This document shows positions 18,351 to 19,064 of a stretch of 26,342 bases of DNA, one piece after another; the stretch's first letter is position 1; the number at the start of each line of letters is the position of its first letter. The notes under the pieces were generated by a model that made no database searches, was not told where the DNA came from, and was given only the letters and a program-made list of their open reading frames with translations. The position numbers and the translations under genes are program-made. The stretch covers positions 1-26,342 of IMG/VR virus record IMGVR_UViG_2850796239_000005; one strand, written 5' to 3'. The DNA comes from a virus. Taxonomy: Duplodnaviria; Heunggongvirae; Uroviricota; Caudoviricetes.

Positions 18351-18566
18351 ATGAAATCCATGGATAAAATTTCAACGGGCATTGCCTACGGCACCTCCGC
18401 CGGCAGTGCCGGCTACTGGTTTTTGCAGTGGTTGGATCAGGTCAGTCCATCACAGTGGGCTGCGATTGGTGTGCTGGGAAGTCTGCTTCTGGGGCTTCTG
18501 ACTTATCTGACGAATCTGTATTTCAAAATAAGAGAAGATAAGCGTAAGGCTGCGAGAGGTGAATAA
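18351..18566 (+). CDS. S: Class II pinholin, phage-21 S21 type (71 aa, dual-start MKSM)
   Basis: [45 protein letters not shown]... matches S21 as recalled. GGAGGTGAGG upstream. Confidence 0.85.
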
Positions 18567-19064
18567 TGTCGCCATCATTACGCAAGGCTGTTGCAGTTGC
18601 TATTGGTGGCGGGGCTGTTTGCTATAGCATCTGTGTTAATCACTGGCCCAGGTGGTAACGATGGTCTGGAAGGTGTCAGCTACATACCATACAAAGATAT
18701 CATTGGTGTATGGACTGTATGTCACGGACACACCGGAAAAGACATCATGCCTGGTAAAACGTATACCGAAGCAGAATGCAAAGCTCTCCTGAATAAAGAC
18801 CTTGCCACTGTCGCCAGACAAATTAACCCGTACATCAAAGTCGATATACCGGAAACAACGCGCGGCGCTCTTTACTCGTTCGTTTACAACGTGGGCGCTG
18901 GCAATTTCAGAACATCGACGCTTCTTCGCAAAATAAACCAGGGCGATATCAAAGGCGCATGTGACCAGCTACGTCGCTGGACATATGCTGGCGGTAAGCA
19001 ATGGAAAGGGCTGATGACCCGTCGTGAGATTGAGCGTGAAGTCTGTTTGTGGGGGCAGCAATGA
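18566..19064 (+). pseudogene. R: SAR endolysin, phage-21 R type, frameshifted near its N-terminus as sequenced
   Basis: ATG 18566 (overlaps holin stop) gives [18 protein letters not shown] then goes out of frame. The main ORF (18591-19064) reads ...[39 protein letters not shown]... with the E-x8-D-x5-T catalytic spacing. Junction at T-run 18618-18620; one fewer T would restore ...[17 protein letters not shown]. Confidence 0.8.

Follow-up and report, generated by a model that had tools for sequence, protein, structure and literature searches.

The 26,342-nucleotide stretch of viral DNA analysed here (IMG/VR record IMGVR_UViG_2850796239_000005, positions 1-26342; hereafter the window) very probably carries an inherited loss-of-function frameshift in the signal-anchor-release (SAR) endolysin gene, R, of a defective lambdoid prophage of Shigella boydii, with a lysis cassette that cannot lyse the cell. 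The frameshift is a single extra T within the coding sequence of the membrane anchor, it is shared by two separately sequenced S. boydii assemblies, and it lies in a prophage that has also lost its antiterminator and has had its packaging genes cut and turned round.

Results

A one-base insertion within the SAR segment

The original prediction, made from the letters of the window, was that a phage-21-type SAR endolysin is frameshifted within its SAR segment, that the ATG at 18566 encodes the SAR N-terminus with the catalytic domain continuing in another frame, and that dropping one T from the run at 18618-18620 restores the reading frame. All three points were borne out, and every coordinate proved correct. 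The gene is divided as follows.

18566..18658, + strand: 5' fragment of the endolysin gene R; native start and first 18 codons correct, then 12 out-of-frame codons and TAA
18618..18620, + strand: TTT run with one inserted T, the frameshift site; TT in all intact relatives (alignment)
18621..19064, + strand: rest of R in the +1 frame; encodes the entire GH24 lysozyme domain, preceded by AIASVLITG, the second half of the SAR segment

The stop codon of the holin gene (TAA, 18564-18566) overlaps the start codon of R (ATG, 18566) as TAATG, just as in phage 21, and the native Shine-Dalgarno (SD) sequence of R is GAGAGGTG, with a pairing energy of -7.1 kcal/mol. The open reading frame (ORF) that begins at this ATG has 30 codons and stops at 18656-18658. 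This 30-codon head and the 148-codon body of the catalytic frame are in different frames, the latter frame running without interruption from the holin stop to 19064, with its first possible start at TTG 18591. It is in the 18591-19064 frame that the lysozyme profile PF00959 (Phage_lysozyme) was matched over positions 3-125 of 125 with E=8e-46, and that frame also holds the catalytic triad motif, E-X8-D-X5-T in the wording of PMC9239132, as E35, D44 and T50 in the numbering of the repaired protein. In this family the SAR domain comprises a basic N-terminus and then some 20 weakly hydrophobic residues rich in Gly and Ala. The inserted T splits the SAR domain at codon 19, and the domain is in frame with the catalytic domain only after one T is deleted in silico.

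An alignment to phage 21 R had been suggested as a check on the prediction. Positions 18540-19070 of the window were aligned with phage 21 R and with the corresponding genes of FDAARGOS_943 and CFSAN029787, the two best E. coli complete-genome matches. The sole gap in this four-way alignment was one extra T in the window, turning TT into TTT, and over 531 columns it was the only difference between the window and the intact R of CFSAN029787. Removal of the T yields a protein of 165 residues, all 165 of which are identical to WP_000075178.1 (CFSAN029787) and 156 of which are identical to phage 21 R. When compared with proteins of known structure, the repaired protein matched RrrD (PDB 4ZPU) and R21 (3HDE/3HDF) with E about 1e-107. 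The best ten E. coli complete-genome matches were each one base shorter than the query, hence all without the extra T, and annotated as intact rrrD, and an exact-sequence look-up placed a protein identical to the repaired product on 449 contigs. NCBIfam held no specific model for R, S or Rz1. As judged by sequence comparison with many intact orthologues, the locus has a specific one-base lesion and not a chance pattern, and it would be classed as a frameshift pseudogene of the phage 21 R-type SAR endolysin family rather than as a functional member.

The insertion in other assemblies

The base call of the inserted T rests on the agreement between two assemblies. Positions 8597-26342 of the window are 100% identical to CP026875.1 (GCA_002950355.1), which is probably S. 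boydii ATCC 35964, to judge from the adjacent accession CP026876.1, a plasmid of that strain; the window thus derives from this genome or from an identical one. The same TTT was found in contig AERN01000035 of GCA_000193915.2, an assembly listed as S. boydii ATCC 9905 (PMC6397287), and this contig is 100% identical to positions 15747-21196 of the window (5450 bp including flank). CP026875.1 is a complete chromosome and AERN01 is a 2011-era draft; they come from separate projects and bear different culture-collection numbers. Since the same T is present in two separately sequenced assemblies, it is taken to be an inherited mutation and not a read error.

That the T is nonetheless a sequencing or assembly artefact, the strain truly having TT and an intact R, we regard as very improbable. 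In long-read and 454 assemblies no error is commoner than the single-base homopolymer indel, and the allele was found in two assemblies only: a 43-mer across the insertion matched exactly one IMG/VR locus, namely the ATCC 9905 contig, and had no exact match in JGI metagenome contigs or GTDB species representatives, the intact 42-mer matching 24 IMG/VR loci. However, the run is just three bases long, the same insertion is present in both the complete chromosome CP026875.1 and the AERN01 draft, and the surrounding prophage bears several unambiguous large lesions. Furthermore, the ATCC 9905 draft assembled an intact, 165-residue copy of the same R allele correctly on another, second prophage-like contig (IMGVR_UViG_2534681697_000027, locus L019; match at 1967-2008, - strand), and this strain thus holds both frameshifted and intact copies of the allele.

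Shorter products of the catalytic frame were also looked up. The 155-residue product read from TTG 18597 is called in one GenBank annotation and has an exact match on one record only, CP026875.1. The contigs with the 105-residue product of the internal ATG were of partial use: that of ATCC 9905 bears the same T, a second shows a different 1-bp deletion and a third an IS insertion, and the other two are contig ends. A 143-residue product (GTG 18633), found on seven contigs labelled Shigella flexneri or E. coli, was considered as a sign of further carriers of the frameshift and was rejected as the result of assembly truncation; every retrievable case begins at most 12 bases from a contig end and is uninformative on the T.

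The rest of the lysis cassette

The other lysis genes surround R in the arrangement listed below.

18351..18566, + strand: gene for the S21-type class II holin (pinholin), 71 codons; two starts, ATG 18351 and ATG 18360 (dual-start motif MKSM)
19061..19528, + strand: Rz i-spanin gene, 155 codons, open; PF03245, E=2e-30
19281..19487, + strand: Rz1 o-spanin gene inside Rz, in the +1 frame; PF06085, E=4e-21; lipobox VVGC

The S21-type holin, Rz and embedded Rz1 had been described as intact, and we reached the same view, the three ORFs being open and matching PF04971, PF03245 and PF06085. The holin (PF04971 Phage_holin_2_1, E=1e-35) has a strong SD of -10.8 kcal/mol, is identical to phage 21 S at 68 of 71 residues and keeps the MKSM dual start (Met1/Met4). 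Rz agrees with that of CFSAN029787 at 153 of 155 residues and Rz1 is identical to the copy in the same genome. Rz1 lies wholly within Rz and has the lipobox Cys, which is the embedded two-component spanin architecture. At residue 18 of Rz, in the transmembrane segment (codon 18, 19112-19114), the window has Arg and both phage 21 and CFSAN029787 have Cys. This C18R change was considered as a second lesion and rejected as a natural polymorphism, Arg18 being present in 11 of 28 related loci, some of them with an intact R.

In its gene order (S21-R-Rz/Rz1), its overlaps, its dual-start holin and the placing of Rz1 within Rz, the cassette is the same as that of phage 21, but Rz1 throughout, and Rz over its C-terminal half, represent another allele (Rz 97/155 and Rz1 29/68 identical to phage 21). 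The claim that the cassette is complete except for the shift can therefore be kept for the reading frames of S, Rz and Rz1, all of which are open, but not for expression of the operon, given that the antiterminator is destroyed and that the prophage is IS-ridden and rearranged.

Loss of the antiterminator

Upstream of the holin gene, the following features were located.

17349..17660, + strand: ninG cut to its N-terminal half (103 aa; covers positions 1-111 of the 193 of the PF05766 profile)
17653..17875, + strand: remnant of the antiterminator at the Q position, found by tblastn with the 204-aa protein of CE10; of 204 codons, the final 75 are left
18030..18059, + strand: hairpin resembling a terminator, with a T run; lies after the Q remnant and before the holin gene (consensus scan only)

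In E. coli CE10 a gene for a protein of 204 residues lies directly before the holin gene, and this protein matches phrog_753, 'anti-termination protein Q-like', with E=2e-67. Its counterpart in the window lacks codons 1-129 and, as a DNA alignment showed, has also lost 5 bp near 17791. A deletion fuses the N-terminal half of ninG to the Q remnant, and the resulting junction was spanned by none of 5426 E. coli complete genomes. The hairpin at 18030-18059 is a candidate late-operon terminator that would need Q for read-through, a role suggested by likening its position to the phage 21 annotation. The region differs from phage 21 in that the antiterminator, of which a remnant is left, is of another Q family (phrog_753, not PF06530), and in that the two tRNA genes that phage 21 has upstream of S are missing, no such tRNA genes being found in the window. 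With Q lost, the lysis operon is probably silent.

A rearranged and defective prophage

Downstream of the cassette the prophage is interrupted by two copies of one insertion sequence.

19932..21197, - strand: IS3-family insertion sequence (NF033516 IS3-family transposase), which cuts the KilA-N gene that follows closely on the lysis cassette
24474-25739, + strand: inverted twin of this IS3-family element; the 1266-bp copies are 99.9% identical

Both 1266-bp copies, which may be IS600-like, carry ORFs of 100 and 272 residues, and the KilA-N ORF has been reduced by one copy to 72 residues. Between them (21184-24338), the portal and large-terminase genes run on the strand opposite to that of the lysis genes, and of terS nothing but the tail is left. 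It looks as though the packaging genes were inverted through the IS copies. The prophage is a defective lambdoid one and is dead, and the R frameshift is one lesion among several.

Several other contents of the window and its surroundings were recorded. A lambda-type integrase gene (1-903, - strand) runs off the left edge of the window and is followed by two paralogous ORF6N-domain antirepressor-like genes (1184-1966 and 2166-2948). The early region contains IS debris (3417-6400), comprising an rve-domain ORF (3863-4768, - strand), an HTH_Tnp_1 ORF (5049-5375, + strand) and adjacent ORFs. Near the repressor region the prophage has a HicA/HicB toxin-antitoxin pair (about 11466-12055 of the window; 2870-3459 of locus L004). 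Just past the right end of the window, CP026875.1 has NEL- and LRR_TTSS-domain genes beside a prophage tail-fibre remnant (17925-19687 of L004). These genes represent an ipaH-like type III effector that is apparently split into two ORFs, and they fit a Shigella/EIEC host.

Alternative starts and recoding of the catalytic frame

A functional start and signal sequence belonging to the catalytic frame itself had been named as the evidence to look for against a frameshifted gene, and we found neither a credible start nor a credible signal there. The candidate starts upstream of Glu35 are TTG at 18591, 18597 and 18603 and GTG at 18606 and 18633, all of them inside the ORF that is translated from ATG 18566. 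At best they pair with the 16S anti-SD at -1.5 to -3.1 kcal/mol, as against -10.8, -7.6, -7.1, -8.4 and -8.3 kcal/mol for S, S68, R, Rz and Rz1, respectively. The first in-frame ATG of the catalytic frame is at 18747, past both E35 and D44.

It is nevertheless possible to imagine that the catalytic ORF is expressed from TTG 18591 or 18597, with a new hydrophobic N-terminus, the first half of the SAR segment read out of frame, replacing the signal anchor, and that the endolysin works; we consider this highly unlikely. The frame is open from 18591, AAGG is found 9 nt upstream of TTG 18597, the 155-residue product has, as noted, been annotated once, and the new N-terminus is higher in mean hydropathy over 15 residues (2.8-2.9) than the native SAR segment (2.3). 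Against this, the start is a TTG placed inside a translated ORF with a good start of its own, and the SD pairing of this TTG is only about -3 kcal/mol. The basic n-region is missing, there being no Lys or Arg in the first ten residues of the alternative-start products, and the hydrophobic stretch has 16-18 residues before TGP compared with 26 in the native protein. It also has fewer Gly and Ala, the residues that make a SAR domain releasable. The allele is one base away from intact genes with no compensating change and is found in one lineage only, and the Q gene is destroyed. Sun et al. reportedly reached the view in 2009 that the released SAR segment of R21 refolds into the body of the enzyme, so that swapping the first half of this segment may also harm activity. 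We would give very little chance to a weakly expressed, TTG-initiated protein of 155-157 residues, with a swapped and more hydrophobic anchor, still being exported and active as an endolysin. If it were, it would be a natural case of a signal-anchor segment keeping its membrane activity in a second reading frame.

Recoding, in which ribosomes shift by +1 at GTT-T or at CCC-AGG (18647-18652), or RNA polymerase slips, to yield a low level of full-length fused enzyme, is the least probable of the alternatives and can practically be set aside: in the shifted frame CCC does come to precede AGG, a rare Arg codon, at three codons from the stop, and tRNA-Pro slipping by +1 there would bring the ribosome back into the catalytic frame immediately ahead of GGNDGLEG, but a stimulatory element, conservation and a homopolymer long enough for transcriptional slippage are all missing, CCC-AGG is a by-product of the insertion in a stretch that intact relatives read in the other frame, and the product would bear CYSICVNHW instead of AIASVLITG in its anchor. 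Contexts of the CCC-AGG type are slip-prone; the one at 18647-18652 is probably just a by-product without meaning. As an evolved feature, programmed recoding, whether by frameshifting or by transcriptional slippage, was likewise rejected, the slippery run, the stimulator and the conservation being missing.

Discussion

We favour the reading that R was inactivated by an inherited frameshift. One T was inserted into a TT at codon 19, halfway through the SAR segment. Ribosomes starting at ATG 18566 would then make a peptide of 30 residues and stop at 18656-18658, and the lysozyme domain would be uncoupled from the positively charged, Gly/Ala-rich N-terminal anchor. SAR endolysins are exported by the Sec system, are tethered to the membrane by the SAR domain and remain inactive until the pinholin depolarises the membrane, and the holes made by pinholins are only on the nanometre scale (PMC9239132). 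A cytoplasmic lysozyme fragment, even if it were made, could therefore not reach the wall. The lesion lies in an operon that was probably already silent, with its Q-type antiterminator lost, ninG truncated and the packaging genes cut and inverted. Given the weak alternative starts and the loss of Q, we infer that active enzyme is not made from this allele.

Like R21 of phage 21 and RrrD of the K-12 prophage DLP12, its closest known counterparts, the repaired protein has the same N-terminal anchor and the E35/D44/T50 triad within 165 residues, and its gene overlaps the holin stop codon in the identical way. The difference is that the gene in the window is split, and no R21-like protein is possible from the native start.

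Related genomes show at least five different kinds of break in the same R allele. ADUP01000038 (locus L010, at about 2860) has a 1-bp deletion in the GGTGGCGGGG run of R, and CP026831.1 (L009, at about 2931) has an IS3-family insertion that removes the 5' end of the gene. In three IMG/VR loci (L026, L032 and L037), foreign DNA has been inserted in R after codons 26, 63 and about 59, respectively. Since these lesions in sister copies of R are independent, they form the pattern expected for random decay of the lysis genes of resident prophages. Cryptic lambdoid prophages such as DLP12, Qin and Rac, known from E. coli K-12 and Shigella, whose late genes decay through IS elements and point mutations, present the same picture, with frameshift, deletions, IS insertion and inversion in one prophage and with different lesions of the same gene in sister genomes. 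The window differs from them in nothing of kind; this particular T insertion was seen in the two S. boydii assemblies only. What is described here is thus ordinary decay of a well-characterised prophage gene, a process that is already known, and involves no new mechanism.

In practical terms, the gene should be annotated as a frameshifted rrrD/R21-type pseudogene and not as a 155-residue 'lysozyme', and the prophage should be scored as defective, with Q gone, R broken and the packaging genes inverted and truncated. The T insertion was presumably neutral or favoured during domestication of the prophage. The several ways in which the allele has been broken, together with the persistence of an intact identical copy in one and the same strain, fit a neutral or mildly favoured loss of lysis functions. 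Beyond annotation the finding carries little weight, amounting to one more small example of prophage decay in Shigella, which is well known.
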